From assembly GCA_963719425.1 (NCBI GenBank), contig OY970382.1:244862-308861 (forward strand): DNA of 64,000 bases, read 5' to 3'. The notes beneath the pieces are model-generated. The model had not been told where the DNA came from. It saw only the letters and a program-made list of their open reading frames with translations, and made no database searches. This DNA comes from an uncultured bacterium (GTDB lineage: Bacteria > Patescibacteriota > Minisyncoccia > UBA6257 > 2-01-FULL-56-20). Both the position numbers and the translations under genes were made by a program. Below are positions 15,001-56,692 of the stretch, one piece after another; position 1 is the first letter of the stretch, and each line of letters starts with the position of its first letter.

Positions 15001-17881
15001 GATGCCAATAATCGGGATTGCTGGCTGATACCGTCGCGTCCAGCATGTTCGGATTCTGGATAAGGTTCGCTACTGCTGCGCTCACCGTGATGGTGTAGCC
15101 CTGCGTTGAGGATGTCAAACCGACAGTTGCTTTTATGGTGAAGTTGAATACTCCGGTCACACTTGGGGTTCCGGCGATGGAGGTTGTGGGGCCCGTGGCA
15201 GAAGTGAGCGAAAGCCCGTTAGGCAATGCGCCGGAAGTGAGTGTCCACGAAATCGTCCCCGTCGCCGCGGTTGTTGCCGTAAGCGTTTGCGCGTAGGGAG
15301 CGTCGATTGTGCCGTTCGCAAGCTCGGTCGGGCTGATGCCGAGCGGAGGCGGGACGAAAGTGTTCGTTATCGTACACGTGACCGTGCTCGTGCCCATCGT
15401 GCCCGTGCACGAAGCGGAGGGTGACACCGTGTAATATTGGGAGTTCGTGGTCGTTGCTTCAGCCACGCGGTATGTGTCGCCGACATTCAGCGTATAACTC
15501 TGCGTGCTTGAAGCAGAGCCGTTGAATACTGTTGTTGAGCCGTTCTTCAAAACGGTCAGGATGAAATCCCCATAGGTTGCGGAACCACTCGTACTGTTCA
15601 CGAGATTTACAACAAGCGTTGCGGAACTTATTTTAGTGGAGGTCAGCGAGCCCGATCCGGTGTTTCCAGCCGCATCCGTTTGCGATACGGTCGCGGTCAG
15701 GGTTCCGTCGGGAAGCGTGCTCAAATTAAGAACTTTTGACCACGCGCTTGAAGCGCAGGTTGAGGTGGCGTTCACACTGCTTGAAGCGTTCGTCACTGCA
15801 AGTGAAACCGTAAGGCCAGTTTCGCAGGCGCCCGAAAGGGTTACGGCGGTATTATTCGCGTTCGTGACCGCCGGGAATGAAGTGACCGTAACGCTCGGGG
15901 CGGTGTTATCCACCGTAAAAGTCGTGCTTGGTCCGGCAGCTGGAGCAGTGTTGCCCGCGTTGTCGCTTGCCGTTCCTGCCGCGATGCTGATGCCGAGCGT
16001 GCCGTCCCCAGTGATCGATGAGATCGTGACCGTTCTCGTGCTGGTCCCCGAGCCGGTCACCGCTACGGTGCCGGTGGTCGTTCCCGTCTTATTCAAAGCC
16101 ACATTGGCGTTCACAAGGGTAACGGTATCTGCGCCGCCATAGGTGATGGTGTAGGTGATCGGTCCGCTCTTTGTGAGTGACGCAGAGGGTGAGCCGATGG
16201 TAACGGTCGGCGCCGTGTTGTCGATTTGAATTTGTCGGTTCGCCGAAATTTGTGAATTGCCGACGGCATCCGCCACAGTGACCGTAAGCTGTTTGGCGCC
16301 GTCCGCGCCACCATTCGTGATCGTAAGGATGCCCGTGCATTTCTGCGTGGTAGTGCTGTAGGTGATCGATCCGGTAAACGATGTTACCCCGCTTATCGCT
16401 GGATTACAGCTTGTGCCATTTGTTATTCCCGAACCGGTTTCGGTGATTGAAACATCCACCGAGGTTGTCGCATTGTTTTTATAGCGTGAGTCCGTCGCAG
16501 GGGAGTTGAAGGAGTATGACGGAGCAGTCGTGTCGGGAGTTACTGCCACTGCAGTGCCGGTGCCGGTATTTCCCGCGTTGTCCGTTCCGCGGACGTTGAT
16601 TGAGGTCGCTGCGGCAGTGTTTACTCCGCTTGCACTACAGCTGCCGGCCGAAAATGTCCCCGCCGTCCACGTAGTGCCACCATTTATAGTGTATTGGCAG
16701 GAAGCAACGCCGCTTCCGGAGTCGCTCACCGTTGCGGAGATGGTTGAGGTTCCCGAGATATATTTCGGAGAAGAGCCGCTCGTCGGGGTTATTGTGACTG
16801 TTCCAATGGTCGGGGCGGCGGTGTCAATCTTCGCGACATTCGTAGACGTGTAGGTCGCCGTGTTGCCAGCGTTATCTGAGATAAGATATTGATATTCGTA
16901 ACAATTGCTGTTCGCAACAGTGGTGTCGTTATAGGGGCTCGTGGAGGTTGTTACGAGATTCGCGAAAGAGCCGAATGTTCCGCAGGAACCGTTGCTCAAT
17001 GTCGCCGAAGCCCGCTGGATTTTCCCCGAAGCCGTGTTTATGCCGGAACCACTATCGGTCCCAAGCGTAAAGGTGACGGAAACCGAAGTCGTCGTGGCGT
17101 AACCGTTGAGGTATGAGATGGAACCGCCGGAAGGAGGCGTTGTATCTGGGCGCAATGCAATGAGCTGTGCTTCCCAGGCGTCATTAGCTGCTCCGCTTGC
17201 AGTCTTTGCGCCGCTTGCACCTGTCGCGGACTGGACAGCGTCAGCTGTCTCTTCGTTTGGTCCGCTTGACTGAGTCTGGTCAAAACGCTCCGTCATACCG
17301 GTTGGGGGCGTCATCGATCCACTGCTATCGCTTGCAAAAGCCGCAACAAGCAAATCGTTTGCGACGGTAGTCGTAACATTTGAGGCAGATGGCGAAGCTG
17401 AAGTCCCTGTATTACCGCTCGAAGTATCAACTGGATTTGAAGTGTCAACGCCCGTATAGCGGAGAATGCCACCACCTGCTCGGTTCCCATGCGATCCATA
17501 GTTAAGGGTCCACGCGAAAGTAGATCCCTCTGAGCCGGTTACCACATGATAATAAGTAGCCAACGCATTATTAGTTCCATTGTTCGTCCTTAGTATCAGA
17601 GTCCAGCCGGACGGTGGTGTAATTGTGTCGTCGCTCCCACCATGGGCAGCAATGGTGGCGATGAGGATGTCGCCAGCTGCAGTGGATGCTGGCTTTGAAA
17701 TCGTGAGCGTGGTATTTGTGGTTGTCGCGTTCGCTTCCGTCCCGAAACTGATTGCTGCAAAGGCTTGTGGCACAACAAGTAGCATCCCGAGCGCCACCGC
17801 CGAACTGATTTTTATTAAATTTGTTTTTTGGAAAATGTTTTTCACTGATCTTTTATTTTTTATTTTTGTTTCTATTTTCAT
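6056..17881 (-). CDS. giant secreted cell-surface protein (3,941 aa)
   Basis: Signal peptide (KISSAVALGMLLVVPQAFAA). NodB motifs LVSLTFDDGW ... SHTEDH. DUF5011-like Ig domain (TPPVITLIGSSTVN...YNVSDAHGNAA). About 16 MBG/YDG domains (KVYDGTTNA...; YTGVYDGAAHSATG). Repeated He_PIG-like modules (LPDGIT ... ISGTPT). An FN3-like domain (TSVTITWTT ... GTTYYLRSV). A Gly9 run. C-terminal PG_binding_1-like domain (YFGDATKNAVIIFQ). Confidence 0.85.
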   Translation of the reverse strand: MKIETKIKNKRSVKNIFQKTNLIKISSAVALGMLLVVPQAFAAISFGTEANATTTNTTLTISKPASTAAGDILIATIAAHGGSDDTITPPSGWTLILRTNNGTNNALATYYHVVTGSEGSTFAWTLNYGSHGNRAGGGILRYTGVDTSNPVDTSSGNTGTSASPSASNVTTTVANDLLVAAFASDSSGSMTPPTGMTERFDQTQSSGPNEETADAVQSATGASGAKTASGAANDAWEAQLIALRPDTTPPSGGSISYLNGYATTTSVSVTFTLGTDSGSGINTASGKIQRASATLSNGSCGTFGSFANLVTTSTSPYNDTTVANSNCYEYQYLISDNAGNTATYTSTNVAKIDTAAPTIGTVTITPTSGSSPKYISGTSTISATVSDSGSGVASCQYTINGGTTWTAGTFSAGSCSASGVNTAAATSINVRGTDNAGNTGTGTAVAVTPDTTAPSYSFNSPATDSRYKNNATTSVDVSITETGSGITNGTSCNPAISGVTSFTGSITYSTTTQKCTGILTITNGGADGAKQLTVTVADAVGNSQISANRQIQIDNTAPTVTIGSPSASLTKSGPITYTITYGGADTVTLVNANVALNKTGTTTGTVAVTGSGTSTRTVTISSITGDGTLGISIAAGTASDNAGNTAPAAGPSTTFTVDNTAPSVTVTSFPAVTNANNTAVTLSGACETGLTVSLAVTNASSSVNATSTCASSAWSKVLNLSTLPDGTLTATVSQTDAAGNTGSGSLTSTKISSATLVVNLVNSTSGSATYGDFILTVLKNGSTTVFNGSASSTQSYTLNVGDTYRVAEATTTNSQYYTVSPSASCTGTMGTSTVTCTITNTFVPPPLGISPTELANGTIDAPYAQTLTATTAATGTISWTLTSGALPNGLSLTSATGPTTSIAGTPSVTGVFNFTIKATVGLTSSTQGYTITVSAAVANLIQNPNMLDATVSASNPDYWHQGGYGNNTRIFSYPLLAGPNPGDKAAEVSVSNYVDGAADWYFDHVAITGGATYSFSDWYNSTNTSYLAAEYTLADNSNTYPILATLPSTGGVWTSATQQFTAPPNAVSVTVYHFISGNGSLATTNYSLTLVAEPGAYLFPQGLVSLTFDDGWQSQFDNAVPVLYAAHLHGTFYIITNAMLNSPDDPDLSFMSTSSVLSLQNTYGEEIGSHTEDHCDLVQLFNDPNSAMTTVGCPDNPLPAPSTAQDQIDGSKTALTDIGVTPVDTFAYPYGSGAGNTSIEGLLSADNFAAGRSVIQGYNLKNTDPYALQVQVVDASVATNTIHSWIDYAAANKVWLILLFHQIETSTAPLATEVDGTTQAVLQDTVDYLNGKKGTGNGQIGVDTIHDVMAQYININDTTPPVITLIGSSTVNTEVGTPYVDAGATALDNIDGDLTTHIVTTSTVNINQLGAYTVTYNVSDAHGNAATPVVRTVNVIPRAITVTADAKTKVYGAVDPALTYQITSGTLIASDTFSGALIRDAGENVGAYAIKQGTLALNGNYTLTFVTSTLNITAASVTVSATGHDKVYDGTTNATANLTVNGVVNGDLLTASGTALFADANAGTAKLVTVTGIILNGTSAANYNFNDTATTTAAITKANPTIIVTPYAVPFDGAAHTATGTAKGVLDEALSGLDLTGTTHTDAAGYPTDPWTFTDATGNYNNATGTVADAIGKVDATINVTGYTGVYDGAAHSATGTATGIGGADLAASLDLGASFTNVPGGTASWTFTGGTNYNDASGTVAIAITKANPTIIVTPYAVPFDGAAHTATGTAKGVLDEALSGLDLTGTTHTDAAGYPTDPWTFTDATGNYNNATGTVADAIGKVDATINVTGYTGVYDGAAHSATGTATGIGGADLAASLDLGASFTNVPGGTASWTFTGGTNYNDASGTVAIAITKANPTIIVTPYAVPFDGAAHTATGTAKGVLDEALSGLDLTGTTHTDAAGYPTDPWTFTDATGNYNNATGTVADAIGKVDATINVTGYTGVYDGAAHSATGTATGIGGADLAASLDLGASFTNVPGGTASWTFTGGTNYNDASGTVAIAITKANPTIIVTPYAVPFDGAAHTATGTAKGVLDEALSGLDLTGTTHTDAAGYPTDPWTFTDATGNYNNATGTVADAIGKVDATINVTGYTGVYDGAAHSATGTATGIGGADLAASLDLGASFTNVPGGTASWTFTGGTNYNDASGTVAIAITKANPTIIVTPYAVPFDGAAHTATGTAKGVLDEALSGLDLTGTTHTDAAGYPTDPWTFTDATGNYNNATGTVADAIGKVDATINVTGYTGVYDGAAHSATGTATGIGGADLAASLDLGASFTNVPGGTASWTFTGGTNYNDASGTVAIAITKANPTIIVTPYAVPFDGAAHTATGTAKGVLDEALSGLDLTGTTHTDAAGYPTDPWTFTDATGNYNNATGTVADAIGKVDATINVTGYTGVYDGAAHSATGTATGIGGADLAASLDLGASFTNVPGGTASWTFTGGTNYNDASGTVAIAITKANPTIIVTPYAVPFDGAAHTATGTAKGVLDEALSGLDLTGTTHTDAAGYPTDPWTFTDATGNYNNATGTVADAIGKVDATINVTGYTGVYDGAAHSATGTATGIGGADLAASLDLGASFTNVPGGTASWTFTGGTNYNDASGTVAIAITKANPTIIVTPYAVPFDGAAHTATGTAKGVLDEALSGLDLTGTTHTDAAGYPTDPWTFTDATGNYNNATGTVADAIAPSSITIALNSADLNQVYDGNPKTVGVTTNPDNLANIVTYDNATTTPVDAGTYAVAATITDPNYAGTATGTLVIAQASQTIAFAPLADVTIGDPDFSISATSTSGLAVTFTATSSDVCTISANTVHLMGPGSCMITAEQASDLNHEAAPNVPQTFTVNNAPNIITVNSADVAITGEVPDTATVGVPYAGAILTVSSTDTGVFNWTVSDLPDGITSIPTGNTLTISGTPTTPTSTTVSVTATNETNASTTVTQTYPLTVSDAPAITIATSSPDVAEVGVSFSQTFTASDSNATDTFTFGVAGLPDGFTSTSTPTTLTIAGTPTTTDSIVLNVNATSTLNVASAGSLTDTITVGNAPAISFITTSPLPDATVGIPYTATITATSTNPADTLTLSTSTPLPAWITSFAVNGDTATISGTPESADLGSSTVNMTATGANPASAPTAQDFSISVLAAPAVTITPPSLNATIGVSYSGNFTASDADASDTFNWNASGTIPGLTFTDGNLTGTPAATGTFPIDVTATNNTNGASTATQHFDFAVSNAPTITIVSGLTPDTATAETPYSATIVATSTDPADTLTWQIAGLPAWATSTPAGDTTTVSGTPHASDVGSSTINVSVNGSNVQSNVASKNYTLTVEAAAPTSTPSSTVTLTPPSGGFNDATVNVLYPAPATIHATNSANATDTFIFAITAGAIPTGMDVSTSSDGFSLSISGTPTATGTFNFSVNATSDSDNSQSASGDYSIKVVEAPASISTITISPAAGALPGTETDTSYSQTFTATNSGNASDTFNWNASGTIPGLNFADGLLSGTPTATGTFPLDITATSVSDGSLSTAQHYTLIISELPPPPPTPTSTLNVTVTVDNSAGGSATPSDFTVTIIGGHPSTSTFPGNASGTLVTVDEKMTYGANISSLTNYTVGNNGDCQGKTAPAGNSIPCAFTETFALPAPIISEQTSTNPTDTSVTITWTTDHPATSRVVYGTASVSDASSTAAGEPNYGYANSTDENAATTTDHSVTVSGLTPGTTYYLRSVSHGSPESVGNEITVTTTGSATQPGGNTGNGGGIVVTSGGGGGGGGGTGYYPPTITTGGGQVLGASTTNPGVLLQLLQSLMQQLIALEKKLVTQQLKDASCSAQFNQNLSQGMNNADVKMLQTVLNMSDLTQVAQSGVGSPGNESTYFGDATKNAVIIFQNIFADEILAPNGLTSGNGYVGSATRSVLNQLCSQ
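9790..13101 (-). repeat. about 7.4 nucleotide-identical tandem copies of a 450-bp unit (150 aa, two MBG/YDG domains) inside the giant gene
   Basis: Identical sequence lines recur every 450 bp. Identical shadow ORFs fall at 9958, 10408, ..., 12658. Only the edge copies differ (e.g. cggt vs cagt at 9788 vs 10238). Confidence 0.9.
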
Positions 17882-18172
17882 TTTTATTTTTTGATTTTAG
17901 ATTTGATGTGATGTTATTCCCGACCCTTTCTTTTTGACTGCACCTGGAACATAAGAGGATTCGGCGGAGGAGATATGCACATGCCTCCTCTATGGACGCC
18001 GAAAAGCTCCCACAGAGGAGAGTTCCTGTATTGGCCACTTTCTGTGCCCTGGAAGGCCCGTAAATCCACACTCTTCATGGTTAATGATGGCCGTTTTAAT
18101 GCTCCTTTAATTTGCGGGGAGAATAGCATATTACAAGAAGGCGTGTCAAGGGCACTAAAACAGGAGCGAATG

Positions 18173-18202
18173 AAAAACCTCACTCGCACGAATGAGGTTT
18201 TT
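18173..18202. terminator. bidirectional intrinsic terminator (AAAAACCTCA-ctcgcacgaa-TGAGGTTTTT)
   Basis: A-tract/T-tract flanked hairpin 17 bp downstream of the GT2 gene stop. Separates the glycan operon from the giant gene promoter region. Confidence 0.45.
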
Positions 18203-18218
18203 CATTGCGGTGGGTAAT

Positions 18219-19610
18219 TTAAACCGCTCTCCTCGTCGGGCTAATCCACTGTCCGGAAGATTTGGTCAACAACGCCTTAGGCATCGCTCCCAGAAATGCC
18301 AGCGCGTCAAAAAAACGCACCAAAGGAAACGCGAGGCCTAACAATAAATATTGCGGTCTTCTTCGGGCTGCGATTAAGGTCATTAAATAATCGGGCAGCA
18401 AGACCGCGAACAGGACAATTCCGAGCAAAACCTTGGAAACTGCCGGGAAAGCAAAAAGAATCGAAAGACCTGCTGAGTGCTGTATTGTGATTTGGCCGGA
18501 AAAAATTATAAAGAGCAAAGCAAACGGCAGCAGTAAAAATGCTAAGCTAGCCAAAAATGTTTCCAGCAAAGTTATGCAAAGTGCGGCCCAGAATTTGCTT
18601 GGCCAAAAACCGTGCAAACGGATAGTTTGCCAAAATCCCAAATACCACCTTTTTACCTGACGGTAATAATCGCGCAAATTATCAGGATCCTGGGTATGAG
18701 CGATTATGCTGGGGTGGTGGGCTATGATCCCGAGGTGTTTATGGTGCAATTCAAACGTCATATTAAAATCTTCTATCACGGGCCCTTGCGGGTTCATATT
18801 CATTTTTTCCAGGACGGATGTCCGGTAAATACTGGCAAAGCCCGGCACTATGGGCGTAACGTTGGTATGCCGCCATGTCTGGCCGAATTTAATGAGGATC
18901 TGGCTTAGAAAATAGACCCGGTCTCTATGCGCCAGAAAAAGCATCTGCCGCCACGACTGCTTTTTTGGGTCCCATATTGTCCGCGCGTAACCGGCCACGG
19001 CAGCGACTTCTGGGTCGCGGAAAAAAGGCAGCGCGTTTTCCAGATAATCATTTTTGAGGCGCGTATCCGCATCCACAAACAATACGGCTTTGTAGGCATG
19101 ATATAAATTAAAATGCCTTAAACATTCTTCCAACGCGCCGGCTTTGCCGTGAGAGGCCTCCAGGTTCAGCACCTGAACATTAAAACTTTGGGCAATGGTT
19201 ACGGTTGAGTCTGTCGAGCCGTCCGAGACGACGAACAAATTTTTTGCGGGTACAATTTTTAAAAGCGCGTTCAAGGTGTCAGCAATGACCAGTTCCTCGT
19301 TGTGCGCCGGCACCAAGACCGCCACCTCGTCATGCGTAATACTTGGAGGTTCGTCCATCCCATCTTGTTTAGTCGGGGCTTTTTGAAAAAAAGTTTCGAA
19401 AATCAGCCTCGTGAGACCAATAGTGCCCCAAACAAAAAAATTTATTCCCCACGTAAGCACTATACCCAGCAGTAGCCACCAGATGTGCGCCCCCCTGCAA
19501 AAAAAAGAGCCGACTTGGCTTAAAACCGGCAATAAAACAGCCCCAAATCCAAACGGCCAACCTGAAATATGGTAATAGTATGAGATATGGGAAATAAAAG
19601 AATTAAACAT
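18219..19610 (-). CDS. integral-membrane family-2 glycosyltransferase (synthase-type, TM helices at both ends)
   Basis: GT2 motifs VLVPAHNEELVIADTL, VSDGSTDST, DADTRL and a QxxRW-like region (RQVKRWYLGFWQ), with N- and C-terminal TM bundles like HAS/Cps3S/PgaC-type synthases. Confidence 0.8.
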   Translation of the reverse strand: MFNSFISHISYYYHISGWPFGFGAVLLPVLSQVGSFFCRGAHIWWLLLGIVLTWGINFFVWGTIGLTRLIFETFFQKAPTKQDGMDEPPSITHDEVAVLVPAHNEELVIADTLNALLKIVPAKNLFVVSDGSTDSTVTIAQSFNVQVLNLEASHGKAGALEECLRHFNLYHAYKAVLFVDADTRLKNDYLENALPFFRDPEVAAVAGYARTIWDPKKQSWRQMLFLAHRDRVYFLSQILIKFGQTWRHTNVTPIVPGFASIYRTSVLEKMNMNPQGPVIEDFNMTFELHHKHLGIIAHHPSIIAHTQDPDNLRDYYRQVKRWYLGFWQTIRLHGFWPSKFWAALCITLLETFLASLAFLLLPFALLFIIFSGQITIQHSAGLSILFAFPAVSKVLLGIVLFAVLLPDYLMTLIAARRRPQYLLLGLAFPLVRFFDALAFLGAMPKALLTKSSGQWISPTRRAV

Positions 19611-20619
19611 TTTGTTCCGCTACTTCTTGCCCCGCCATAAAACCAGGCTTGGCTGAGGTCTTACCCATTTCGACAATGCGGTATTTAAACGCCTCCAAGG
19701 TCTGCTTGAGGCCATGCTTTAAGTCGATCTTGCTTTTCCAGCCCAAAGCTTGGATTTTTTGTAGGTCCGGCAAACGGCCCGAGTGGTCGTGGGCGGCTCT
19801 GGGAATGATAGTGATCTTGCTGGAAGAATTAGCCAAGCCAACTATTAAAACAACCAAGTCTTTTATTTTAATCGGTTGGTTGCTGCCTAGATTGTATACC
19901 TGTCCTGGCACGCCCTTTTCCATGATAATTTCAAACCCATCTAATATATCTTCCACGTAGCATAAGGTTCTGCTCTGCTCCCCGTCTCCATATAGGGTGA
20001 TGGGAAGATTGTTTAAAGCTTGCCATCCGAAGCGGGGCACCACGCGCATATCGGAAAAAGACATCCTCGGGCCATAGGCATTGAACAGTCTGACGATTTT
20101 AGCGTTAAGCCCATAGCGGCGCACGAACCAAGCCACCAAAGTTTCGGAAAAACGCTTGCCTTCTTCATAGTTGGCGCGCGGCCCGGTTGGGTCGACATTT
20201 CCTTCATAGCTTTCCTTTTGTGGAGAGACTAAGGCCTCTCCGTAAATTTCCGAACTGCTGGTAAAAAGCAATTCCGAGCCATGGTCAAGCGCCAGTCTTA
20301 ACACCTGCCAAGTGCCGGTGCTTGATGCCTGCAGCATTTCTTCGCCCAAAACTTGGATGTTCGGCACGCCTGTGGGACAGGCCAGATTGTAAATGCGCTG
20401 GAACTTAACCTTAGCGGCGGAGCAGAAGCCCAAAAATTGCGGGGTTTCTATGCCGCATTGGCCAAAAGAAAAATTAGGATATTTTTTCAAAAACTCAATG
20501 TTTTGCAGATCACCGGTGAGCAGGTTATCAACACCCCAGACGGTATGCCCCGCCCGAAGCAAGCGCTCGCATAAGCTTGAGCCCAAAAACCCTGCTGCCC
20601 CCGTAACGAGAATATCCAT
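19603..20619 (-). CDS. NAD-dependent epimerase/dehydratase, UDP-glucuronate decarboxylase (UXS)-like
   Basis: Rossmann GAAGFLGS and SDR-extended family features. Adjacent to a UDP-sugar dehydrogenase. Confidence 0.75.
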   Translation of the reverse strand: MDILVTGAAGFLGSSLCERLLRAGHTVWGVDNLLTGDLQNIEFLKKYPNFSFGQCGIETPQFLGFCSAAKVKFQRIYNLACPTGVPNIQVLGEEMLQASSTGTWQVLRLALDHGSELLFTSSSEIYGEALVSPQKESYEGNVDPTGPRANYEEGKRFSETLVAWFVRRYGLNAKIVRLFNAYGPRMSFSDMRVVPRFGWQALNNLPITLYGDGEQSRTLCYVEDILDGFEIIMEKGVPGQVYNLGSNQPIKIKDLVVLIVGLANSSSKITIIPRAAHDHSGRLPDLQKIQALGWKSKIDLKHGLKQTLEAFKYRIVEMGKTSAKPGFMAGQEVAEQNV

Positions 20620-20620
20620 G

Positions 20621-21916
20621 TTATCTTCCTATGCCGCCATAGAGAATGTTGGCGGCCAGAAATTCCTGTTTATTGAAGCAATTGCGTCCGTCAATTACTA
20701 TCCCGACGCCGTGCCGGGAAAAATATTCCGGCTTTAAATCTCTGAATTCTTTATGGGCGGTTGTAATAATGACTCCTTGGGTTCCCTGTAAAGCTTGGCG
20801 TAAGCTCTTTGTCGATTTGGCAGGCAGGTAGGGATCGTAGGCTGTCGTCTCTATCCCTTGAGCCTGTAAATGAGCGATAACTTCATAAGCCGGGCTTTCG
20901 CGATCGTCGGCCACATCCGGCTTGTACGCAAGCCCCAAAACGGCCACTTTTGAACCGGCAGGGGAAATATTTTTTTCTTTAAATTTTTTCAACAATAAAC
21001 CCACCGTAAAGTTGGGCATTTGATTGTTAATTTTTCTGGCTAGGGAAAGGAACTCATGCCGGAAGCCGTTTTGCTTGGCGTACTCTATTAAGTAGTAAGG
21101 GTCAACAGGAATACAATGGCCGCCAACACCTGCGCCGGGATAGTGCGCCATAAATGCGAATGGTTTTGTTGCCGCACCATTGATGACGTTCACCACGTCA
21201 ATACCAAGCTTCGCGAACGACATCGCGAGTTCGTTCACAAAGGCAATGTTGATATCACGGAAAGAGTTTTCTACGATTTTCACTGCTTCGGCCTCCTTGA
21301 GTGATTCCATTTCTTTTACGGGAGCTTTCACGATGGAACGATAAAATTTGGCGGCACGTTGGAGGCTCTCCGTATTAAAACCGCCGACAACGCGCGGAAT
21401 GTTCTCTACGTTCCATTTCAAGTCTCCGGGATTGATCCGCTCGGGACAATGTGCCATGAAGAAATCCTTCCCAACCGTGAGACCGGAGGTCTTTTCCAAA
21501 ATCGGGATTGCCACTTCATCACACACACCGGGGTTCACCGTTGATTCAAGAATAACGAGTTGTCCTTTTTTCAGATGTTTCCCGATTGATTCACACGCCT
21601 TTTGTACCGGACCAAGATCTGGACGATAGTCTTCGTGAACCGGAGTGGGTACACAAATTACGACGATGTCTACATTCCTAAGAACGCCAAAGTCGGCCGT
21701 TGCACGAAGCGACGACTTTTTGAGAAGCAGGGCCAACCCTCTCTCTGGGATTAAGGACGGGGGCAGCGTTCTCTTATTTATCGCTGCTATCTTTTTAGTA
21801 TCTAAATCAATACCGATCACGTCGTATCCTCTACGGTCAGCTAAAATGGCGAGGGGGAGCCCGACATAGCCCAGGCCAACAATTGCAACGTTTTTAGGCG
21901 TCCTTGCTTTTTTCAT
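20621..21916 (-). CDS. nucleotide-sugar dehydrogenase (UDP-glucose/UDP-GlcNAc 6-dehydrogenase family)
   Basis: N-terminal NAD fold VAIVGLGYVGLPLA, catalytic Cys region GGHCIPVDPYYL, about 431 aa. Confidence 0.85.
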   Translation of the reverse strand: MKKARTPKNVAIVGLGYVGLPLAILADRRGYDVIGIDLDTKKIAAINKRTLPPSLIPERGLALLLKKSSLRATADFGVLRNVDIVVICVPTPVHEDYRPDLGPVQKACESIGKHLKKGQLVILESTVNPGVCDEVAIPILEKTSGLTVGKDFFMAHCPERINPGDLKWNVENIPRVVGGFNTESLQRAAKFYRSIVKAPVKEMESLKEAEAVKIVENSFRDINIAFVNELAMSFAKLGIDVVNVINGAATKPFAFMAHYPGAGVGGHCIPVDPYYLIEYAKQNGFRHEFLSLARKINNQMPNFTVGLLLKKFKEKNISPAGSKVAVLGLAYKPDVADDRESPAYEVIAHLQAQGIETTAYDPYLPAKSTKSLRQALQGTQGVIITTAHKEFRDLKPEYFSRHGVGIVIDGRNCFNKQEFLAANILYGGIGR

Positions 21917-22048
21917 CGTTCGTTAAGGCTTTATTAAATCCCGCTACTTATACTCCATTACGAATGATTTGTAAAGGGGAGGAATGTATGCTCTTAGTGA
22001 TGCGGCGCATAGCTCGAATGCTATGCGCCGTTGTCCTCTTGCTCTGCC

Positions 22049-22831
22049 CTACTTGCAAAAGCCATTCATTTTCAGGATGAGATCCCGGGGGATCCCGAGA
22101 TCTTTGATCACCGTGAGGAGGGTCTGATATCCTACGAAGAGTCGCTTAGCCTGACTCGAAACTGTCTCGGAACTGTATTTCGTGTTAATTTTTTCGGAAA
22201 TGTGTGGTCCGTACAGTGCCGGATGGGGAATCTCGGTCACTCTCGCTTCCGGTTTGGCATCCCATATCCGGAGAACAATTTCCATCGGAACGCCATAGCC
22301 TGCGGTGATGAGATTGGATCCCAAGAGATGAGCGTAGCGGCCCGGAAAACCCACATACCCACTACGGACATCGGTCAGGTTCCACGATGTAATCGTCCGG
22401 ACCATCTTCGTAAACATCATGTTGAGGAGGATCCGGTCAGTGGGCGTATGTGTCTGTTTGGAAAACGGATGGAAACGTGAACAAATTACAAGATCGCTCC
22501 CGTCCTTCAGGTTGGAAACGACGCTTGGCAAAAGCTCGAGGTCATGCTGCCCGTCGCCATCGAGCTTCACGACCCACATAACACCCTTGAGCTTCGCCGC
22601 GATGAAGGCGAGGCCCGTGCGCGTAGCTGCCCCGACCCCCTCATGGACGTCTGACTCCAGAACGAAGTCGGTATACCTTTTGGCGATTCCTGCGGTTCCA
22701 TCAGTCGAGCGATCGTCCGAGACAACGATCGTTGTTAGATGGCCGCAAACACTTTTGGGAACCGCGGACAGAATATTCCCGATAGTCTCACACTCATTTC
22801 TTGCCGGTATCAAAATTACCAGCTTTCCCAT
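22049..22831 (-). CDS. family-2 glycosyltransferase, polyprenol-phosphate sugar transferase (DPM1-like)
   Basis: LVILIPARNECETI ... VVSDDRSTDGT, a GT-A DxD region, soluble of about 260 aa. Start taken at MGKLVIL. Confidence 0.7.
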   Translation of the reverse strand: MGKLVILIPARNECETIGNILSAVPKSVCGHLTTIVVSDDRSTDGTAGIAKRYTDFVLESDVHEGVGAATRTGLAFIAAKLKGVMWVVKLDGDGQHDLELLPSVVSNLKDGSDLVICSRFHPFSKQTHTPTDRILLNMMFTKMVRTITSWNLTDVRSGYVGFPGRYAHLLGSNLITAGYGVPMEIVLRIWDAKPEARVTEIPHPALYGPHISEKINTKYSSETVSSQAKRLFVGYQTLLTVIKDLGIPRDLILKMNGFCK

Positions 22832-23198
22832 GTTTTTACCCTCTCTTTCTGTGCGTTGCGGCAAGCCGCAAAACTGCTGGGAATCTAATGTAATTTTAAT
22901 CTTTTGTCAATAGCAGTGGCCCGCACATATCTGCTTCACAAAAAGCCGCGGGTTCTTGCGGTCCGCCTTCTCTGGAAACGAGTGGTCTTCGTTAGAACTC
23001 GGAGGATATTTGAGGGAGTTGCCAAAGCTGATAAATAGAACGTTGGTAATGGTGTAATTTCCAAAAATGATGTCGGTGTTGGCAGTGATGGCAAGGGTCT
23101 AGCGACATTCACAACGTACATACGTTCATTTGTCCGAATCCTGCGCAGATTATCATCTCGTCTTTGCAACGAGACTTTTTTTCATCTATGCTGTTTGT

Positions 23199-23963
23199 AT
23201 GGAAAACCTCGAAAAGCGAGAAATAAAAGAGGGGCGTCACTACCCATACGATGCCATTATTGTTTTCGGTGGCGGGTTGCATAAGCTCGGAGAAAAGTAT
23301 TATCCCACGGATTACCGCCAAGGCGATCAATTTGGGATGCTCGGCGCAGGAATACGCATGGCAGCGGCGCTTGAGCTTTATTTCCAAAAGAAAGCCAAAG
23401 AGTTTGTTTTTACGACCGGGGTCACTGAGAAAAGTAGGTCCGAATATGGCCCTGATGTGCCCACGGAGGCCGCGGTGTATAGAGAAAAATTTCTTCGTTC
23501 TTTAGACGCCCTGAAGAAGCGCGGAGATTATAAGGAAAAGTTTAAGGAAGTAGAAGCGCCAGATGTTATACTGGAAGATAAATCCTTTAGTACGCTGAGT
23601 AATATACAAGAAATTTTGCAGATTATTCAGAATAGGGGGTGGAAGAAGGTCGCCATTGTGAGTAGTGATTATCATATGCCCCGCGTTAGGGCGTTGTACC
23701 AGCAAGCCCTCGGGCAGCATAAAGAAATTCTTATCGACATTGATTTTCGTTCTGCGGAAGACATTGTCAAGGAAGCTGAGCCTGGCAAATACGATGACGT
23801 GATCAAGAGGGCTTACAAATCAGAAGAAGCCCGCAGGAGAGTATCAAATGAGGCTAGGGGTCTGGAAGATATAAAATCTGGCAAATACGCAGTTGGTGAA
23901 TTTCAATTGAAAAATGAGGGAGATCAGAAAACTGACTCCGACCAAAAGCACCGTAATGATTAA
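23199..23963 (+). CDS. DUF218/YdcF-like (SanA/ElyC family) protein
   Basis: YDAIIVFGGG ... KVAIVSSDYHMPRV pattern typical of DUF218. Start taken at MENLEKRE. Confidence 0.55.
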   Translation: MENLEKREIKEGRHYPYDAIIVFGGGLHKLGEKYYPTDYRQGDQFGMLGAGIRMAAALELYFQKKAKEFVFTTGVTEKSRSEYGPDVPTEAAVYREKFLRSLDALKKRGDYKEKFKEVEAPDVILEDKSFSTLSNIQEILQIIQNRGWKKVAIVSSDYHMPRVRALYQQALGQHKEILIDIDFRSAEDIVKEAEPGKYDDVIKRAYKSEEARRRVSNEARGLEDIKSGKYAVGEFQLKNEGDQKTDSDQKHRND

Positions 23964-24129: not shown

Positions 24130-26268
24130 CTACCAATTCACTTGACTCGTGGTTATAACCGTTGTCCAGGGACCAGAAGGGACGTTGCTCGCGGGGACAA
24201 ATTGCCAGTTAACCTGGTTTTCGGCGTTGTCTAATCCGTTGAAGCCCAAACAATCCCTCAAGGCCGGAGACACGTCCATGCCCGCACTGTTGGCTTGCTT
24301 GTTGAGTGGGCGCTGGTCATTCGTGCCAAAAACATAATTGTAGTCGGCGTAGTCAAAGGGTCCGGCGTCTTCGTTCTGGCCGTAGCAAACATTGCTGCCC
24401 TTGGTCAGCTTAACCCAGACGTTTTTCATATAGGAATAATTTTGTGAAGTGTTGCCGGTATACCAGGGAATATTCACTCTCCAGGCATAAGCCGTCGGAT
24501 TATTTATGTCGTCAAACGGCACATCCAAATAGAAAGGATTTTCTTTCGGGTAAAAACTCGTCGGGAAAAAAGGATAGGTACGGAGAGCGGTGTCATCCAC
24601 TCCGCCATAGTCCGCTTCCCACGAACCATCATACGTTGAGATGGTATTGACCTCGGTATAACCGGGAATGGAGCCTTCACCTATCCAAAACACGGTGGCG
24701 GTAATGTTAGTGTGCCAGGGATAAGGACTGCCGGTAGAAGTCGGGGTTGTTGAGGTCGGCGTTGAGGTCGGCGTGCTCTGCACGAAGGTGTTCGTGATAG
24801 CACAGGTGACCGCGCTCGCGCCCATCGTTCCCGCGCAGGCGTTGCCCAGCGCGATCGTGTAACTCGCAGAGTTTGTTGTTGTCGCTTCGGCCACGGAATA
24901 GGCGTCGCCTTGCGTGATCGCAAAGTTTTTGCTCGCTGCAGCGGCTCCGCTAAAGACGGTCGTCGCGGCATCCTTCACGGTAAGGTTAAAATTCGCAGCC
25001 GTTGCCGAACCGCCGTTTACGGAAATCGTCACGGTGAGCGTTGATGTCGGCGTGGGGGCCGGCGGGGTAACCGGCGCTGCAGCGATGCCTATCGTATAGC
25101 TCCGCGTGGATGAGCTCGCGCCGTTCGTGGCTTTTATGGAAAAGGTGGATGTTCCTGCCGTTCCTGGCATTCCTGCGATCGTGGTGGTAACGCTCACCGA
25201 GGAAGTATTGAGCGATAGACCGTTCGGCAAGCTTCCCGAATTTACGCTCCAGGCGAAAGGCCCGTTTGCGGTTGTTGAAGCAGTGAGAACGGCCGGCCCA
25301 TAGGCGACGCTTGCGGTGCCATTCGGGATCGTTGAAGGAATAATGGCGAGAGCGGGCGCGGGTGCGGGTGGGGGCGGGGGAACGTAGGTGTCCGTAATGG
25401 TGCAGTTTGTACTCGCGGTTCCCGCGGTGCCGGAACAGGCAGTGCTCATACTTATGGTATAGTTGGCCGAGTTTGAAGTGGTTGCTTCACTTACGAGATA
25501 GGCATCGCCCTGCGTGAGGGTAAAGGAAAGCGGTGTGGAAGATCCTGCGCCGGAGAAGAGAGTTAACGACGCGGTGTTGTCTATCGCCGTGACATTGAAG
25601 TCGCTCGCGGCCGCCGTACCTCCGTTCACAACAAGGTTAATGGTAAGGGTGGTCGTTGCGGGGGAGGGAGATGTGCCTGAACCACCACCACCCCTGCCAC
25701 CGCCACCGCCTCCTCCGGAAGGAGGAGTTGAAGTTGGCGTGGGAGTCGGTGTCGGAGTTTTGTGTTTATTCTGCAGCGACCAAAGTTGTTGGAAGAGACC
25801 ACCGATGCGTGCTTGGAGGAGCGTCACCGAATTCAAGCTGGTCGGGGTCTGAATCCCTGTCGGCGGCGTTGTCGTTGTAGAACTTGTCACTGGGCCGATT
25901 TGGAATGCGCCAAATTGGCTCTGATAGGTTTGCAGTTCCAATGCGAGCACGTCATTCGCTTTCGCCCGAGTGAGGGGGCCGAAGTAACCACTCACCGGCG
26001 AGATATTGTTCTTTGTCTGGAAATCCTTCACGCCCTTTAGCGTGAGCGAGAAGAAATTGCCGGTGATGGGGCCGGAGTAAGCTCCTTCGTTCGTAAGGAA
26101 TTGCTGGAGATTGGTAACGTCGGCGTTGTTCGTTAGTCCGAAATAAAGATTGTTCGCGAAAGATTGGCTCGCTGCGCCCACAGAGATCGGCGCGCCCAAA
26201 AGGCCGAAAGAAGCTACTCCCGCAACCCCAAGCGCTATACCGATAGAATAAGGCTTGCGCATGGTCAT
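24130..26268 (-). CDS. secreted peptidoglycan-binding protein with two Ig-like two-Cys modules and an unknown C-terminal domain
   Basis: Signal peptide. N-terminal PG_binding_1-like region (TNLQQFLTNEGAYSGPITGNF). PT-rich linkers. Two about 95-aa modules that resemble modules in the giant protein. Aromatic-rich C-terminal domain about 240 aa long. Confidence 0.75.
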   Translation of the reverse strand: MTMRKPYSIGIALGVAGVASFGLLGAPISVGAASQSFANNLYFGLTNNADVTNLQQFLTNEGAYSGPITGNFFSLTLKGVKDFQTKNNISPVSGYFGPLTRAKANDVLALELQTYQSQFGAFQIGPVTSSTTTTPPTGIQTPTSLNSVTLLQARIGGLFQQLWSLQNKHKTPTPTPTPTSTPPSGGGGGGGRGGGGSGTSPSPATTTLTINLVVNGGTAAASDFNVTAIDNTASLTLFSGAGSSTPLSFTLTQGDAYLVSEATTSNSANYTISMSTACSGTAGTASTNCTITDTYVPPPPPAPAPALAIIPSTIPNGTASVAYGPAVLTASTTANGPFAWSVNSGSLPNGLSLNTSSVSVTTTIAGMPGTAGTSTFSIKATNGASSSTRSYTIGIAAAPVTPPAPTPTSTLTVTISVNGGSATAANFNLTVKDAATTVFSGAAAASKNFAITQGDAYSVAEATTTNSASYTIALGNACAGTMGASAVTCAITNTFVQSTPTSTPTSTTPTSTGSPYPWHTNITATVFWIGEGSIPGYTEVNTISTYDGSWEADYGGVDDTALRTYPFFPTSFYPKENPFYLDVPFDDINNPTAYAWRVNIPWYTGNTSQNYSYMKNVWVKLTKGSNVCYGQNEDAGPFDYADYNYVFGTNDQRPLNKQANSAGMDVSPALRDCLGFNGLDNAENQVNWQFVPASNVPSGPWTTVITTSQVNW

Positions 26269-26320
26269 ATATTGGTACGGTAGAGGATACTTTATGTTAC
26301 ATAAAAGGTCAAGCACTCTT

Positions 26321-27073
26321 TTAAGGAACGGGTTTCGCGAGTTCTCTCGCGAGCCAAAGATGCTCGGCGGTGTTTACTCCGACGCCCTCGAGCGGATTGG
26401 CATCCATGGAGGCAACAGCATCGCCCCCATCAATAGCAATCCGCACAAGGTCGGTGAGGTAATATTCTTGCCGCGCGTTATCGTTCGTGAGTTTTTTGAG
26501 ATGCTCCCAAAGCCATTCAGCGTTGAAGCAGAAATAGGAGGGACTTATCTCACAAATCTCAAGTTCGTGTGGCAGTGCATCCTTTTTCTCAACGATTCGC
26601 ACGATGCGACCTTTGTTATCGCGCACGATCCGCCCGGAATCGTAAAATGGCGCACGCCACTCTTTGAAGTCGGGGACGAAGGTGGTCATCATCGTGAGCA
26701 TCGGCCCATCGCGGCGGTGGAGCGCCTCCAGATCTCTAATAGTGGAGGGACGAACGAAAGGGTGGTCTCCGTAAAGCACCACAACCGCGTCCGTTTTACC
26801 TTTCAGGACCGGCTCGGTCTGTTGCACGGCATGTCCCGTTCCCAATTGTGATTTTTGAAGCACGTACGTATAGCGTGGCCCGAAAGTTTGTTGCACCTCT
26901 GCGGCGCCATGCCCCACCACAATGACCGGCTCGCTATCAACACCCGACGATGCGACGGACTCAAGCAAATATGACATCATCGGTTTTCCTTGAAGGGGAA
27001 TAAGCACCTTCGGCTTTTCCGAGAGCATTCGCTTGCCTTTACCGCCGGCAAGCACGACAACGCGGGTTTTCAT
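26321..27073 (-). CDS. sugar-1-phosphate nucleotidyltransferase, GlmU N-terminal-domain-like (uridylyltransferase only)
   Basis: LAGGKGKRM, LGTGHAVQQ, VLYGDHPF motifs. No left-handed beta-helix acetyltransferase domain is present (250 aa). Confidence 0.7.
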   Translation of the reverse strand: MKTRVVVLAGGKGKRMLSEKPKVLIPLQGKPMMSYLLESVASSGVDSEPVIVVGHGAAEVQQTFGPRYTYVLQKSQLGTGHAVQQTEPVLKGKTDAVVVLYGDHPFVRPSTIRDLEALHRRDGPMLTMMTTFVPDFKEWRAPFYDSGRIVRDNKGRIVRIVEKKDALPHELEICEISPSYFCFNAEWLWEHLKKLTNDNARQEYYLTDLVRIAIDGGDAVASMDANPLEGVGVNTAEHLWLARELAKPVP

Positions 27074-28684: not shown

Positions 28685-29259
28685 TGGTAATACTCACAAT
28701 TATCAAGTGGATCTGCATTGTGATTGTGATACTGCTCATTGTGGGCTTCATCTTTGCGTTTTATACGGGCTGGTTTTACCACCCGTTCATGGTGATTATC
28801 ACAATTATCAAGTGGATCTGCATTGTGATTATGATACTGCTCGCCGGGGGCTTCATCTTTGCGTTGTATAAGGGTTGGTCGTACCACCCGCGTTATGAAT
28901 TGGAAACGCGGAAAGCGAAGAAAATATTCACCCTGCGCGACGTGGTGACGAAGGAGCACTGGGAATCCATTGTGAGGAAGTTCTCGCTGGGAACGCCGGA
29001 GGCCGCGCGGGAAGCCGTCATTGAGGCCGATGCGCTCGTGGACACAGTGTTGAAGAGTATGGAAATTCCCGGGCAGCATCTCGCCGACCGGTTGTCCAAT
29101 CTGGAGCCGGAGGAAATTGCGTCGCTCGATCGGGCATGGCGGGCGCACCGCACGCGGAACGATCTCGTGCACACGCCGGGATTTGCGCTGACCGAAAAGG
29201 AGGCGCAAAAGACGCTTGAGGACTACGAGGCTTTTCTCAAAGATTTGGGAGTGCTATAA
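28684..29259 (+). CDS. two-TM membrane protein with duplicated TM segment and helical cytoplasmic C-terminal domain
   Basis: TAATG overlap with the upstream gene. Two near-identical segments (TIIKWICIVI(V/M)ILL..GFIFA.Y.GW.YHP). Confidence 0.55.
   Translation: MVILTIIKWICIVIVILLIVGFIFAFYTGWFYHPFMVIITIIKWICIVIMILLAGGFIFALYKGWSYHPRYELETRKAKKIFTLRDVVTKEHWESIVRKFSLGTPEAAREAVIEADALVDTVLKSMEIPGQHLADRLSNLEPEEIASLDRAWRAHRTRNDLVHTPGFALTEKEAQKTLEDYEAFLKDLGVL
28690..28893 (+). repeat. approximately 102-bp tandem direct duplication (about 90% identical) encoding two TM helices
   Basis: atcacaattatcaagtggatctgcattgtgatt ... appears at about 28693 and again at about 28796. Confidence 0.6.
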
Positions 29260-29266
29260 CGAGGCC

Positions 29267-31461: not shown

Positions 31462-31516
31462 ATCGCCACCCTATCACATCACCCGTTAAAACTTTGTTAA
31501 ATGTCCGACCCACAAC

Positions 31517-31527
31517 GGTGTTATACT
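31517..31527 (+). promoter_or_regulatory. extended -10 element TGtTATACT, 6 nt upstream of the ATG at 31534 (leaderless-type geometry)
   Basis: Read directly. The same -10/N6/ATG geometry occurs at 27305/27317 and 30741/30753. Confidence 0.35.
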
Positions 31528-31533
31528 GTTTCT

Positions 31534-33318: not shown

Positions 33319-33341
33319 TAGCTCTGGAGTAAAATAAAGAC

Positions 33342-36835: not shown

Positions 36836-36881
36836 CCCACTTGGCAGCTTGTGAAAAGGAGTAAAATGGAGGGGTAAGGCC

Positions 36882-38624: not shown

Positions 38625-38631
38625 TTAAGAC

Positions 38632-56062: not shown

Positions 56063-56692
56063 TTATAGATCAATACCGTAACTCCTTAGATCTCTTTCTA
56101 ATCGTTGTTTGCTTGTAAAGAGGATTGTTTGAAAACCCATCTCTCTGGCTGGAACAAGCAGAGACTTCTTATTGTCTATAAAAAGGCAGTCCCCGGCTTT
56201 CGCATCCGCTCTTTCAATGAGAATTTCATAAATTCTCTTATCTGGTTTTGCATACCCGACATACCCAGATGTTATAAAATCTTTAAAAAATCTTTTTAAT
56301 CCAAACTTTCTTATTCTGATATTCATCCACTCTTTCCCTTCGTCGTTTAAGGCGTAGAGGGGTAAAACAGGATATTTTTTGTGTAACCTCTCAATAATCT
56401 CGAACGCATCTTTTTTAAGAATGCATCCATAATAAAGCTTCCTCAATTCTTTTAAAGAAATTCTTCTTTTGGCAACATTTATCAAACCTTGAAAAAACGC
56501 GTTTTCGCCTTCTTTACCAACCCTTATTCCAGGCCAGTATTTATGGAAAATTTCATTTCCTCTTTCCTTACTTATTCCCAGTCTTTTGGGAATAACATCG
56601 TACGACGGCTCTCCCCCTCTGCTATTCCAAGCGTTAGACAAAATTACGCCACCACAATCAAAAGCTATTGCTTTTACGGTCGGAAGACTCAT
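56063..56692 (-). CDS. HAD-superfamily hydrolase (subfamily IA-like)
   Basis: Motif I AIAFDCGGVIL, Lys/Asp motifs of HAD phosphatases. Confidence 0.75.
   Translation of the reverse strand: MSLPTVKAIAFDCGGVILSNAWNSRGGEPSYDVIPKRLGISKERGNEIFHKYWPGIRVGKEGENAFFQGLINVAKRRISLKELRKLYYGCILKKDAFEIIERLHKKYPVLPLYALNDEGKEWMNIRIRKFGLKRFFKDFITSGYVGYAKPDKRIYEILIERADAKAGDCLFIDNKKSLLVPAREMGFQTILFTSKQRLERDLRSYGIDL

Follow-up and report, generated by a model that had tools for sequence, protein, structure and literature searches.

A trio made up of a UDP-N-acetylglucosamine (UDP-GlcNAc) 6-dehydrogenase, a UDP-N-acetylxylosamine (UDP-XylNAc) synthase and a UDP-XylNAc deacetylase has been proposed for the biosynthesis of incednine (PMC11284099), and Bacillus pzX is described in a review as made of XylNAc and N-acetylglucosaminuronic acid (GlcNAcA) (PMC8861577). 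For human UXS1 (hUXS1), the roles of the active-site residues have been described; among them, E120 and R277 are invariant in UXS enzymes and are Ser and Thr instead in the 4-epimerases that act on UDP-glucuronic acid (UDP-GlcA) (PMC3438964). In bacteria of the Candidate Phyla Radiation (CPR; Patescibacteria), surface structures are central to an attached, host-dependent life and nearly uncharacterised, and we found no described UXS or exopolysaccharide system of CPR bacteria in the literature. Here we analysed a 64,000-nt stretch of DNA from an uncultured patescibacterium (assembly GCA_963719425.1, contig OY970382.1, positions 244,862 to 308,861 of the forward strand), called the window below. 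Three adjacent genes in it encode a dehydrogenase (DH), a decarboxylase of the short-chain dehydrogenase/reductase type (SDR) and a membrane glycosyltransferase of family 2 (GT2m). Together they probably make up the core, cytoplasmic and membrane-bound, of a conserved module for a synthase-dependent surface polysaccharide, which would be processed outside the cell by a CE4 domain and by a domain named X here. The module genes and the two genes that carry these domains are as follows:

18219-19610, minus strand: GT2m, membrane GT2 synthase, 463 aa (Pfam GT2 families)
19603-20619, minus strand: SDR, UXS-group UDP-uronate decarboxylase, 338 aa (Pfam; best PDB match human UXS1)
20621-21916, minus strand: DH, three-domain nucleotide-sugar 6-dehydrogenase, 431 aa (Pfam UDPG_MGDP_dh three times; TIGR03026)
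6056-17881, minus strand: giant surface protein, 3941 aa (open reading frame and Pfam domains)
13967-14581, minus strand: CE4 domain, aa 1101-1305 of the giant protein (PF01522, blastp, motifs)
24130-26316, called start at about 26268, minus strand: peptidoglycan (PG)-binding protein carrying domain X, 728 aa (Pfam, gene call)
24133-24729, minus strand: domain X, aa 530-728 of the PG-binding protein (double-psi beta-barrel (DPBB) fold, AlphaFold2 (AF2) model)

Transcription on the minus strand follows the order small GT2, DH, SDR and GT2m, then a 337-nt spacer and the open reading frame (ORF) of the giant protein. The SDR and GT2m genes overlap by 8 nt, and a gap of 1 nt separates DH from SDR. 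An identical copy of the locus was found on an independent 14-kb assembly, and the closest named relatives of GT2m belong to Patescibacteria.

Evidence for a module comes from gene linkage. We collected 80 loci around GT2m homologues sharing 41-58% identity with the window protein: 14 from CPR (several lineages), 62 from Actinomycetota, 3 from Proteobacteria and 1 from Thermomicrobiales metagenome-assembled genomes. ORF clusters from the high-GC actinobacterial loci included wrong-strand ORFs; partners were instead counted by tblastn of the window proteins and of locus representatives against the locus DNA, within 10 kb of the GT2m homologue, with the following results:

Decarboxylase-type SDR: 74 of 80 loci
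Dehydrogenase: 57 of 80 loci
CE4: 39 of 80 loci
PIG-L: 24 of 80 loci
CE4 or PIG-L: 61 of 80 loci
GH18: 53 of 80 loci
Domain X: 30 of 80 loci
GH18 or domain X: 66 of 80 loci
Any of the accessory genes (CE4, PIG-L, X, GH18): 76 of 80 loci
DPM1-like GT2: 2 of 80 loci
DUF218: 0 of 80 loci
GlmU-like gene: 1 of 80 loci

In a count restricted to the loci that extend for 8 kb or more to either side (52 of the 80), SDR was present in 49, DH in 40, CE4 or PIG-L in 42, X or GH18 in 45 and any accessory gene in 50. The CPR loci L003-L006 show a compact, co-directional DH-SDR-GT2m-X-CE4 arrangement, and six CPR loci carry the SDR-GT2m pair with no DH within 10 kb. In the closest relative, locus L082, the identities reach 75% for DH, 79% for SDR, 67% for GT2m and 90% for domain X, which there forms the end of a convergent protein; the small GT2 and DUF218 genes are absent from it. 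The parts are of known kinds (synthase-type GT2, UXS, NDP-sugar dehydrogenase, CE4, DPBB); what appears to be new is the combination conserved across CPR and Actinobacteria, and we found no description in the literature of a HAS-like synthase combined with a dehydrogenase-decarboxylase pair, CE4 or PIG-L, and DPBB or GH18. An earlier note on this DNA, made from the letters alone, had offered a synthase-dependent exopolysaccharide as one of two readings of the locus; that reading fits our data and is strengthened by the conservation of DH-SDR-GT2m across phyla.

We also observed a second flavour of the module, with GH18, PIG-L and a WbqC-like gene instead of X and CE4 (L056 11370-15223, L065 5391-8158, L022 4417-9939). 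Both accessory sets occur together in a few loci (L035, L044).

GT2m contains hydrophobic segments at aa 20-66 and 340-442, corresponding to two N-terminal and about four C-terminal transmembrane (TM) helices around a GT-A domain. Among 28 homologues there is no variation at D134, D180-A-D182, E280-D281 or Q318-V-K-R321-W322. The AF2 model of the protein (pLDDT 85) has long helices at 23-75, 339-377, 382-414 and 420-448, and its best Foldseek match is the hyaluronan synthase (HAS) of a Chlorella virus (7sp7, E 6e-15, TM-score 0.61, 461 columns), followed by Xenopus HAS1, BcsA and chitin synthases. Although its 81.5 bits lie below the equivalog cut-off of 422.3 bits, the PgaC/IcaA model TIGR03937 is still the best NCBIfam model for GT2m. 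Judged by its motifs and flanking TM helices, GT2m belongs to the processive membrane GT2 class (HAS, BcsA, chitin synthase, PgaC), and we propose that it acts as both polymerase and exporter. The synthase-type architecture that had been predicted for it from the sequence is thus borne out by the invariant motifs and by a structural match to HAS over the whole length.

One 764-aa ORF of Mycobacterium sp. E2733 (L041 9965-12259) shows matches to GT2m as well as to SDR; it represents either a synthase-decarboxylase fusion or an error made in calling ORFs from high-GC DNA.

DH contains three UDPG_MGDP_dh domains by Pfam and scores 408 bits with TIGR03026. Its best PDB matches are the UDP-ManNAcA dehydrogenase of P. 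horikoshii (4r16, 279 bits) and Cap5O (243 bits), followed by an NDP-GalNAcA dehydrogenase (3g79, 215 bits) and CalS8 (200 bits), whereas no solved UDP-glucose dehydrogenase exceeds 135 bits in the same PDB search. NCBIfam gives a similar picture: the archaeal UDP-ManNAc-DH model reaches 329 bits and TviB 247, both below their equivalog cut-offs, and the Ugd models AglM, TuaD and PRK15057 reach 207, 157 and 53 bits against cut-offs of 670, 700 and 757, respectively. We further compared DH with the UDP-GlcNAc 6-dehydrogenase of B. cereus (UGlcNAcDH), with which it shares 36% identity (about 252 bits). The sequences of this enzyme and of its partner UXNAcS were taken from the supplement of PMC5078965; each DNA contains one frameshift, and the proteins were stitched from two frames. 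By bit score, DH is 2-fold closer to the N-acetylhexosamine (HexNAc)-type dehydrogenases than to any Ugd. In these comparisons the best matches of DH lie in the WecC/Cap5O/TviB/WbpA/UGlcNAcDH clade and not with Ugd, at scores below all equivalog cut-offs. We found no usable residue-level rules in the literature for HexNAc versus Glc specificity in these dehydrogenases.

The SDR was compared with solved structures and with the two candidate types of decarboxylase. In the PDB, human UXS1 is by far its best match (210 bits; next best 106), with epimerases at or below 106 bits, RmlB at or below 89 and ArnA at 46-48. Alignment with hUXS1 showed that the active-site residues S119, E120, Y147, K151 and R277 are kept and that T118 is replaced by S: SSSE stands for STSE, YEEGK for YDEGK, and the Arg lies in HDHSGRLPD. 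The earlier note's assignment to the UXS group rather than to 4,6-dehydratases or epimerases therefore holds, given hUXS1 as the best match and the six active-site positions. In direct comparison, the window SDR scores 216 bits with hUXS1 versus 129 bits with B. cereus UXNAcS. It does not fall with the UXNAcS type, whereas the actinobacterial module SDRs do (UXNAcS 197-251 bits at 37-44% identity, versus hUXS1 162-208 bits); the SDRs of CPR and proteobacterial modules are of UXS type (hUXS1 206-260 bits versus UXNAcS 122-157). By these scores, two decarboxylase types appear to serve one module, UXS-type in CPR and Proteobacteria and UXNAcS-like in Actinobacteria.

Furthermore, the CPR module SDRs form a subgroup of their own, with a 9-aa insertion before the loop 'ACPTGVPNI' and an R277 loop of the form 'HDHxxR'. 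The first of these loops reads 'ASPASPPNY' in hUXS1, 'AAILGV' in UXNAcS and 'AAAVGV' in the actinobacterial SDRs; the 'GV' common to the CPR SDRs, UXNAcS and the actinobacterial SDRs is a suggestive hint, and only that, of an N-acetylated substrate. Because E120 and R277 are kept and the module has no aminotransferase, a full UXS-type cycle seems more likely than release of a 4-keto-pentose.

The extracellular part of the module would reside in two large surface proteins. The giant protein starts with a hydrophobic signal or anchor and contains Ig-like modules, a CE4 domain set within the chain and, at its C-terminus, a PG-binding-like domain; Pfam recognises Polysacc_deac_1, Bact_surface_Ig-like and MBG_2 in it. 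PF01522 matches aa 1101-1234 with 53.4 bits against a cut-off of 23.1, and the catalytic and metal-binding motifs TFDD, HTEDH, AYPYG and LLFHQ are intact. By blastp, the region from about aa 1100 to 1305 is homologous to CE4 proteins encoded directly downstream of GT2m or X in L002-L013 and L061 and to CE4 proteins of Actinobacteria, and aa 1101-1510 (CE4, Bact_surface_Ig-like and MBG_2) have the same domain arrangement as the CE4 protein of L005, which is 914 aa long. The C-terminal domain is

6059-6346, minus strand: PG-binding-like domain, aa 3846-3941 of the giant protein (PG_binding_1, 19.3 bits, below threshold)

and PG_binding_1-like domains recur in the X carriers, at the giant C-terminus and in the N-terminal extensions of some GT2m homologues.

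The PG-binding protein begins with a signal or anchor and a PG_binding_1 domain (aa 64-118, nt 25963-26127) and continues through Thr/Pro linkers and Ig-like modules of the giant type to the C-terminal domain X. Domain X gave no Pfam match up to E = 10 except one chance match and no match to PDB sequences. Its homologues make up at least 499 clusters at 90% identity, all labelled 'hypothetical' and without a Pfam domain. An AF2 model built from a 50-sequence alignment (pLDDT 92.7) predicts a DPBB fold for this unannotated family, and we propose that X binds or cleaves the glycan chain. Its 90% identity to the L082 counterpart (7891-8481), against 67-79% for GT2m, SDR and DH, marks X as apparently the most constrained part of the module. 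Hydrophobic N-terminal leaders are present in 102 of 120 X-family proteins and in the CE4 proteins checked, which suggests that CE4 and X are located outside the cell.

In other genomes, CE4 and X stand alone as proteins of 230-600 aa adjoining GT2m; here, small ancestral genes for X and CE4 seem to have become parts of large scaffolds that are anchored to the wall and have Ig-like modules in common, with X displaced 4.5 kb upstream. The giant and PG-binding proteins are regarded as components of the module because they carry the CE4 and DPBB (X) domains. The giant 'adhesin' of the earlier note is accordingly redescribed, from its domain content, as a predicted deacetylase carrier of the module and not a target of glycosylation.

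Two further observations concern these domains. Over its final ~95 aa, the giant protein is 39-54% identical to the N-terminal extensions of longer GT2m homologues of 558-602 aa (L002 9497-11305, L003 9563-11239); in some genomes, therefore, the synthase itself appears to bear a wall-binding-like module. In some Arthrobacter and Pseudarthrobacter loci (L064 8598-10019, L076 6587-8056), CE4 motifs are degenerate, with TFDAG or TFDGG for TFDD and HTVTL or YTVTL for HxxxH, and these proteins may be inactive, binding-only deacetylase homologues. On the plus strand at 9812-13216, opposite the giant gene, lies an ORF of 1134 aa, which most probably arises from the high GC and the repeats of the coding sequence on the other strand.

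The pathway that we infer from these assignments would comprise four steps. DH would oxidise C6 of a UDP-sugar (UDP-HexNAc or UDP-Glc) to give a UDP-uronic acid, which SDR would decarboxylate and re-reduce to a UDP-pentose (UDP-XylNAc or UDP-Xyl). The HAS-like GT2m would then polymerise this donor, either by itself or in alternation with another UDP-sugar, and thread the chain through its own TM channel. Outside, the wall-anchored CE4 of the giant protein would partly de-acetylate the chain, and domain X of the PG-binding protein would bind or cleave it.

CE4 and PIG-L are chiefly de-N-acetylase families. GH18 enzymes with a DxDxE core, which is kept in nearly all GH18s of the module, use a substrate-assisted mechanism for which the substrate must bear a 2-acetamido group. 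The best matches of DH, the deacetylases and the intact GH18s therefore favour UDP-XylNAc over UDP-GlcA/UDP-Xyl, and the UXNAcS-like SDRs of the actinobacterial modules and the trio proposed for incednine point the same way. Our tentative choice for the sugar route is thus UDP-GlcNAc to UDP-GlcNAcA to UDP-XylNAc, with XylNAc as a constituent of the resulting polymer, which would be beta-linked and in part de-N-acetylated; the classical UDP-Glc/GlcA/Xyl route we hold to be rather unlikely, and mixed or other donors take up what is left. In its fullest form, this proposal describes a widespread exopolysaccharide system of CPR and Actinobacteria that makes a beta-linked N-acetylxylosamine polymer, possibly with GlcNAc or GlcNAcA, by means of a CPR UXS-type SDR re-tuned to UDP-GlcNAcA, a HAS-like GT2, a wall-anchored CE4 and a new DPBB family. 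Such a polymer would be a 'chitin without C6', related to chitin in the way that xylan is related to cellulose. So extended, the proposal is a possible one that we put forward with some doubt.

Several points weigh against the module and its N-acetylated product. The case is built wholly from comparisons of sequence and structure. The DH clade also holds the TDP-glucose dehydrogenase CalS8, and DH lies below every NCBIfam equivalog cut-off; the clade therefore does not fix the substrate of DH. The window SDR and the CPR-type SDRs are clearly nearer to UXS than to UXNAcS, which favours UDP-GlcA as their substrate. CE4 also includes O-acetyl-xylan esterases. The window itself has no GH18 or PIG-L, and the arguments from these families come from orthologous modules whose GT2m is 42-50% identical. 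The loci were collected via GT2m homology, and linkage was measured in this one direction only. Finally, domain X lies 4.5 kb upstream in another transcription unit, separated from the core by the small GT2 and DUF218 genes, and a strong hairpin stands between GT2m and the giant gene, so that co-regulation is no more than possible.

The alternative that survives best is that a classical UDP-Glc to UDP-GlcA to UDP-Xyl route feeds the synthase, yielding an exopolysaccharide that contains Xyl, GlcA or both, such as a xylan-like polymer or a GlcA/Xyl co-polymer, with CE4 acting as an O-acetyl esterase or on another substrate. It would account for an SDR that has bona fide UXS as its nearest relative and retains every UXS residue, for the acetyl-xylan esterases within CE4, for at least one glucose-nucleotide dehydrogenase (CalS8) in the DH clade and for a GT2m fold nearest to HAS, a UDP-GlcA user. 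It fits poorly with DH, which reaches at most 135 bits with solved UDP-Glc dehydrogenases versus 215-279 with those of HexNAc type and 53-207 bits with the NCBIfam Ugd models versus 247-329 with TviB and UDP-ManNAc-DH. The module also lacks an O-acetyltransferase, GH18s with an intact DxDxE and PIG-L deacetylases accompany the orthologous modules, and the actinobacterial modules use a UXNAcS-like SDR. We consider this alternative unlikely. The UDP-GlcA/UDP-Xyl pathway of the earlier note accordingly keeps its UXS-type SDR and is otherwise doubtful, because DH is not Ugd-like and the partners of the module are de-N-acetylases and GH18s.

A second alternative is a HAS-like heteropolymer, in which GT2m would alternate UDP-GlcNAc with a uronic acid (GlcNAcA or GlcA) or a pentose, and SDR would supply one donor or tune the ratio of uronate to pentose as in Bacillus pzX. 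The best structural neighbours of GT2m are indeed hyaluronan synthases, which are two-donor enzymes, and a precedent is offered by pzX, which combines XylNAc with GlcNAcA (PMC8861577). A gene for a GlmU-type uridylyltransferase also adjoins the X-protein gene, but such a gene accompanies the module in only 1 of the 80 loci. The sequence gives no distinction between one and two donors, and the six CPR loci that have the SDR-GT2m pair and no DH within 10 kb also speak against alternation. Overall, we regard the heteropolymer as quite improbable.

It is highly improbable that the cluster serves to glycosylate linkers rich in Thr, Ser and Pro in the giant and PG-binding proteins by way of a lipid-linked donor from the DPM1-like GT2, as the earlier note's second reading had it: although this small GT2 resembles polyprenol-phosphate sugar synthases (DPMS 45, PpgS 73 bits) and both surface proteins have long Thr/Pro-rich linkers, the enzyme has no TM segment and is not conserved (2 of 80 loci, absent from L082), no GT-C/PMT-type transferase was found among the ORFs scanned, namely those of the cluster and those at 29-44 kb, the CE4 and X domains, free-standing beside GT2m elsewhere, explain the link of these proteins to the cluster, and QxxRW synthases make polymers and to our knowledge are not known to glycosylate proteins.

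The genes that lie between or beside the module genes are as follows:

22049-22864, called start 22831, minus strand: small soluble GT2, DPM1/PpgS-like, 271 aa (PDB, NCBIfam)
23130-23963, called start 23199, plus strand, divergent: DUF218 protein (PF02698, 56 bits)
26321-27073, minus strand: stand-alone sugar-1-phosphate uridylyltransferase of GlmU N-terminal type (NCBIfam GlmU models)

The five ORFs that had been listed for the cluster (the three core genes, the small GT2 and DUF218) are all present where the earlier note placed them and belong to the families it gave, as confirmed by the ORF list, Pfam and NCBIfam. Its inclusion of the DPM1-like GT2 and DUF218 as cluster members finds no support in the linkage counts given above or in L082, from which both are absent; these two genes are neighbours and not members of the module. 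The best solved relative of the small GT2 is the Pyrococcus dolichol-P-mannose synthase (45 bits), and its NCBIfam scores lie below the cut-offs (PpgS 73 vs 370 bits, AglJ 61 vs 325 bits). The DUF218 protein has no TM segment. The GlmU-type ORF lies upstream of the domain-X protein ORF and ends 4 nt from it; GlmU models match it over their uridylyltransferase half with up to 215 bits. Its product may supply UDP-GlcNAc; the gene is not conserved with the module.

Further away, five ORFs of paralogue size (570-605 aa) occupy 31501-40425 on the plus strand, between VirD4/TrwB-type coupling-protein-like ATPases at 29216-30745 and 40469-42430, the second of which has a treble-clef zinc finger. These five tandem ORFs of about 600 aa were considered as GT-C glycosyltransferases that might serve protein glycosylation and rejected, since they have no Pfam match and are flanked by the VirD4/TrwB-like ATPases; the 29-42 kb region resembles an island of the type IV secretion or DNA-transfer kind.

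The composition of the locus was examined next to that of the window, whose GC is 0.535. The five genes flagged by the earlier note have a GC of 0.447-0.523 and a third-position GC (GC3) of 0.457-0.607, compared with 0.529 +/- 0.047 and 0.613 +/- 0.085 for the remaining 34 window genes. The drop is thus real, at about 1 standard deviation, and genes at 31-33 kb are similar in GC to the flagged cluster. The claim of flanks at 58-62% is true of the giant gene only (GC 0.593), since the pyr region lies at 0.53-0.565; the giant gene has a high second-position GC (0.576) because its protein is rich in Thr, Ala and Gly. A difference of this size is weak evidence for transfer. Furthermore, a neighbour-joining tree of GT2m separates a CPR clade, which includes Proteobacteria, from an actinobacterial clade, and therefore suggests that the module is old and widespread within CPR, with long residence rather than recent import. 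On these two grounds, the horizontal acquisition that the earlier note had suggested from GC is not supported. Two genes of about 209 aa elsewhere in the window (56063-56692 and 59217-59843, both on the minus strand) have a GC of 0.37 and a GC3 of 0.33 and depart from the composition of the window far more than the flagged cluster does.

Two signals lie in the spacer between GT2m and the giant gene:

18167-18204, minus strand: perfect hairpin of 16-17 bp directly 3' of the GT2m stop (-26.9 kcal/mol, z = -5.9)
18149-18120, minus strand: promoter-like site TTGACA-18-TATTCT with TG, upstream of the giant gene (consensus match only)

None of 200 shuffles folded as well as the hairpin, and the signal scan also listed a terminator-like site there. 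Its T-run is located within the stem and not 3' of it, and no plus-strand gene converges on it. A strong hairpin thus lies where the earlier note placed its bidirectional terminator, a label that exceeds the data; a terminator or an attenuator ahead of the giant gene is possible. The number of promoter-like sites in the region is not above shuffle expectation. Taken together, the strong hairpin and the promoter-like hexamer pair mean that the giant gene may have its own transcription start. Between the promoter-like site and the giant ATG, an untranslated leader of about 240 nt (17882-18119, minus strand) would remain, which has no Rfam match; Rfam and tRNA scans of the whole window gave no matches.

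The conserved set of DH, decarboxylase, HAS-like synthase, CE4 and DPBB or GH18 probably builds one surface structure of CPR bacteria, and the 'giant adhesin' is reassigned as the carrier of a polysaccharide-modifying enzyme. Domain X, a sizeable unannotated family, now has a predicted fold and a genomic context. The module also occurs in cultivable Actinobacteria (Arthrobacter, Pseudarthrobacter, Cryobacterium, Saccharopolyspora), which makes its chemistry directly testable. If the donor were UDP-XylNAc, structural polysaccharides would gain a new class and UXS-type enzymes a new range of substrates.

Compared with known systems, the module most resembles in its synthase the class I HAS systems of Chlorella virus, Xenopus and the streptococcal hasA/hasB, in which, likewise, one membrane GT2 has its GT-A domain flanked by TM helices and carries the D, DxD, ED and QxxRW motifs, and the synthase gene is coupled to a gene for a UDP-sugar 6-dehydrogenase. 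In contrast to them, GT2m shares an identity of only 16-18%, the DH of the module is not of Ugd type, a decarboxylase stands between DH and the synthase, and extracellular CE4 and DPBB partners are added. The poly-N-acetylglucosamine systems PgaABCD and IcaADBC share the pairing of a GT2 synthase with an extracellular CE4 de-N-acetylase and a glycoside hydrolase activity. However, they need no dehydrogenase or decarboxylase, the module has no counterpart of PgaD/IcaD or PgaA, and its hydrolase partner is DPBB or GH18, not GH13-like or GH153. Among DPBB proteins such as expansins, RlpA, GH45 and cerato-platanins, domain X stands apart by having no Pfam or PDB sequence family match and its own set of invariant residues.

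For the sugar-nucleotide steps, human UXS1 and bacterial UXS provide the best solved relative of SDR, with the six residues kept apart from the change of T118 to S, whereas the loop and insertion of the CPR SDRs differ and the partner DH is not of Ugd type. We know of no HAS-like synthase, CE4 or DPBB partner for the Bacillus UXNAcS or incednine systems, and the UXS-type SDR of the window (hUXS1 216 vs UXNAcS 129 bits) differs from the B. cereus UXNAcS pathway. In gene content, the module nevertheless parallels the B. cereus UGlcNAcDH-UXNAcS route to UDP-XylNAc and pzX and the IdnS2/S3/S1 route of incednine, in which a dehydrogenase of the WecC/TviB clade is followed by a UDP-uronate decarboxylase and a deacetylase is associated in both cases (PMC11284099).

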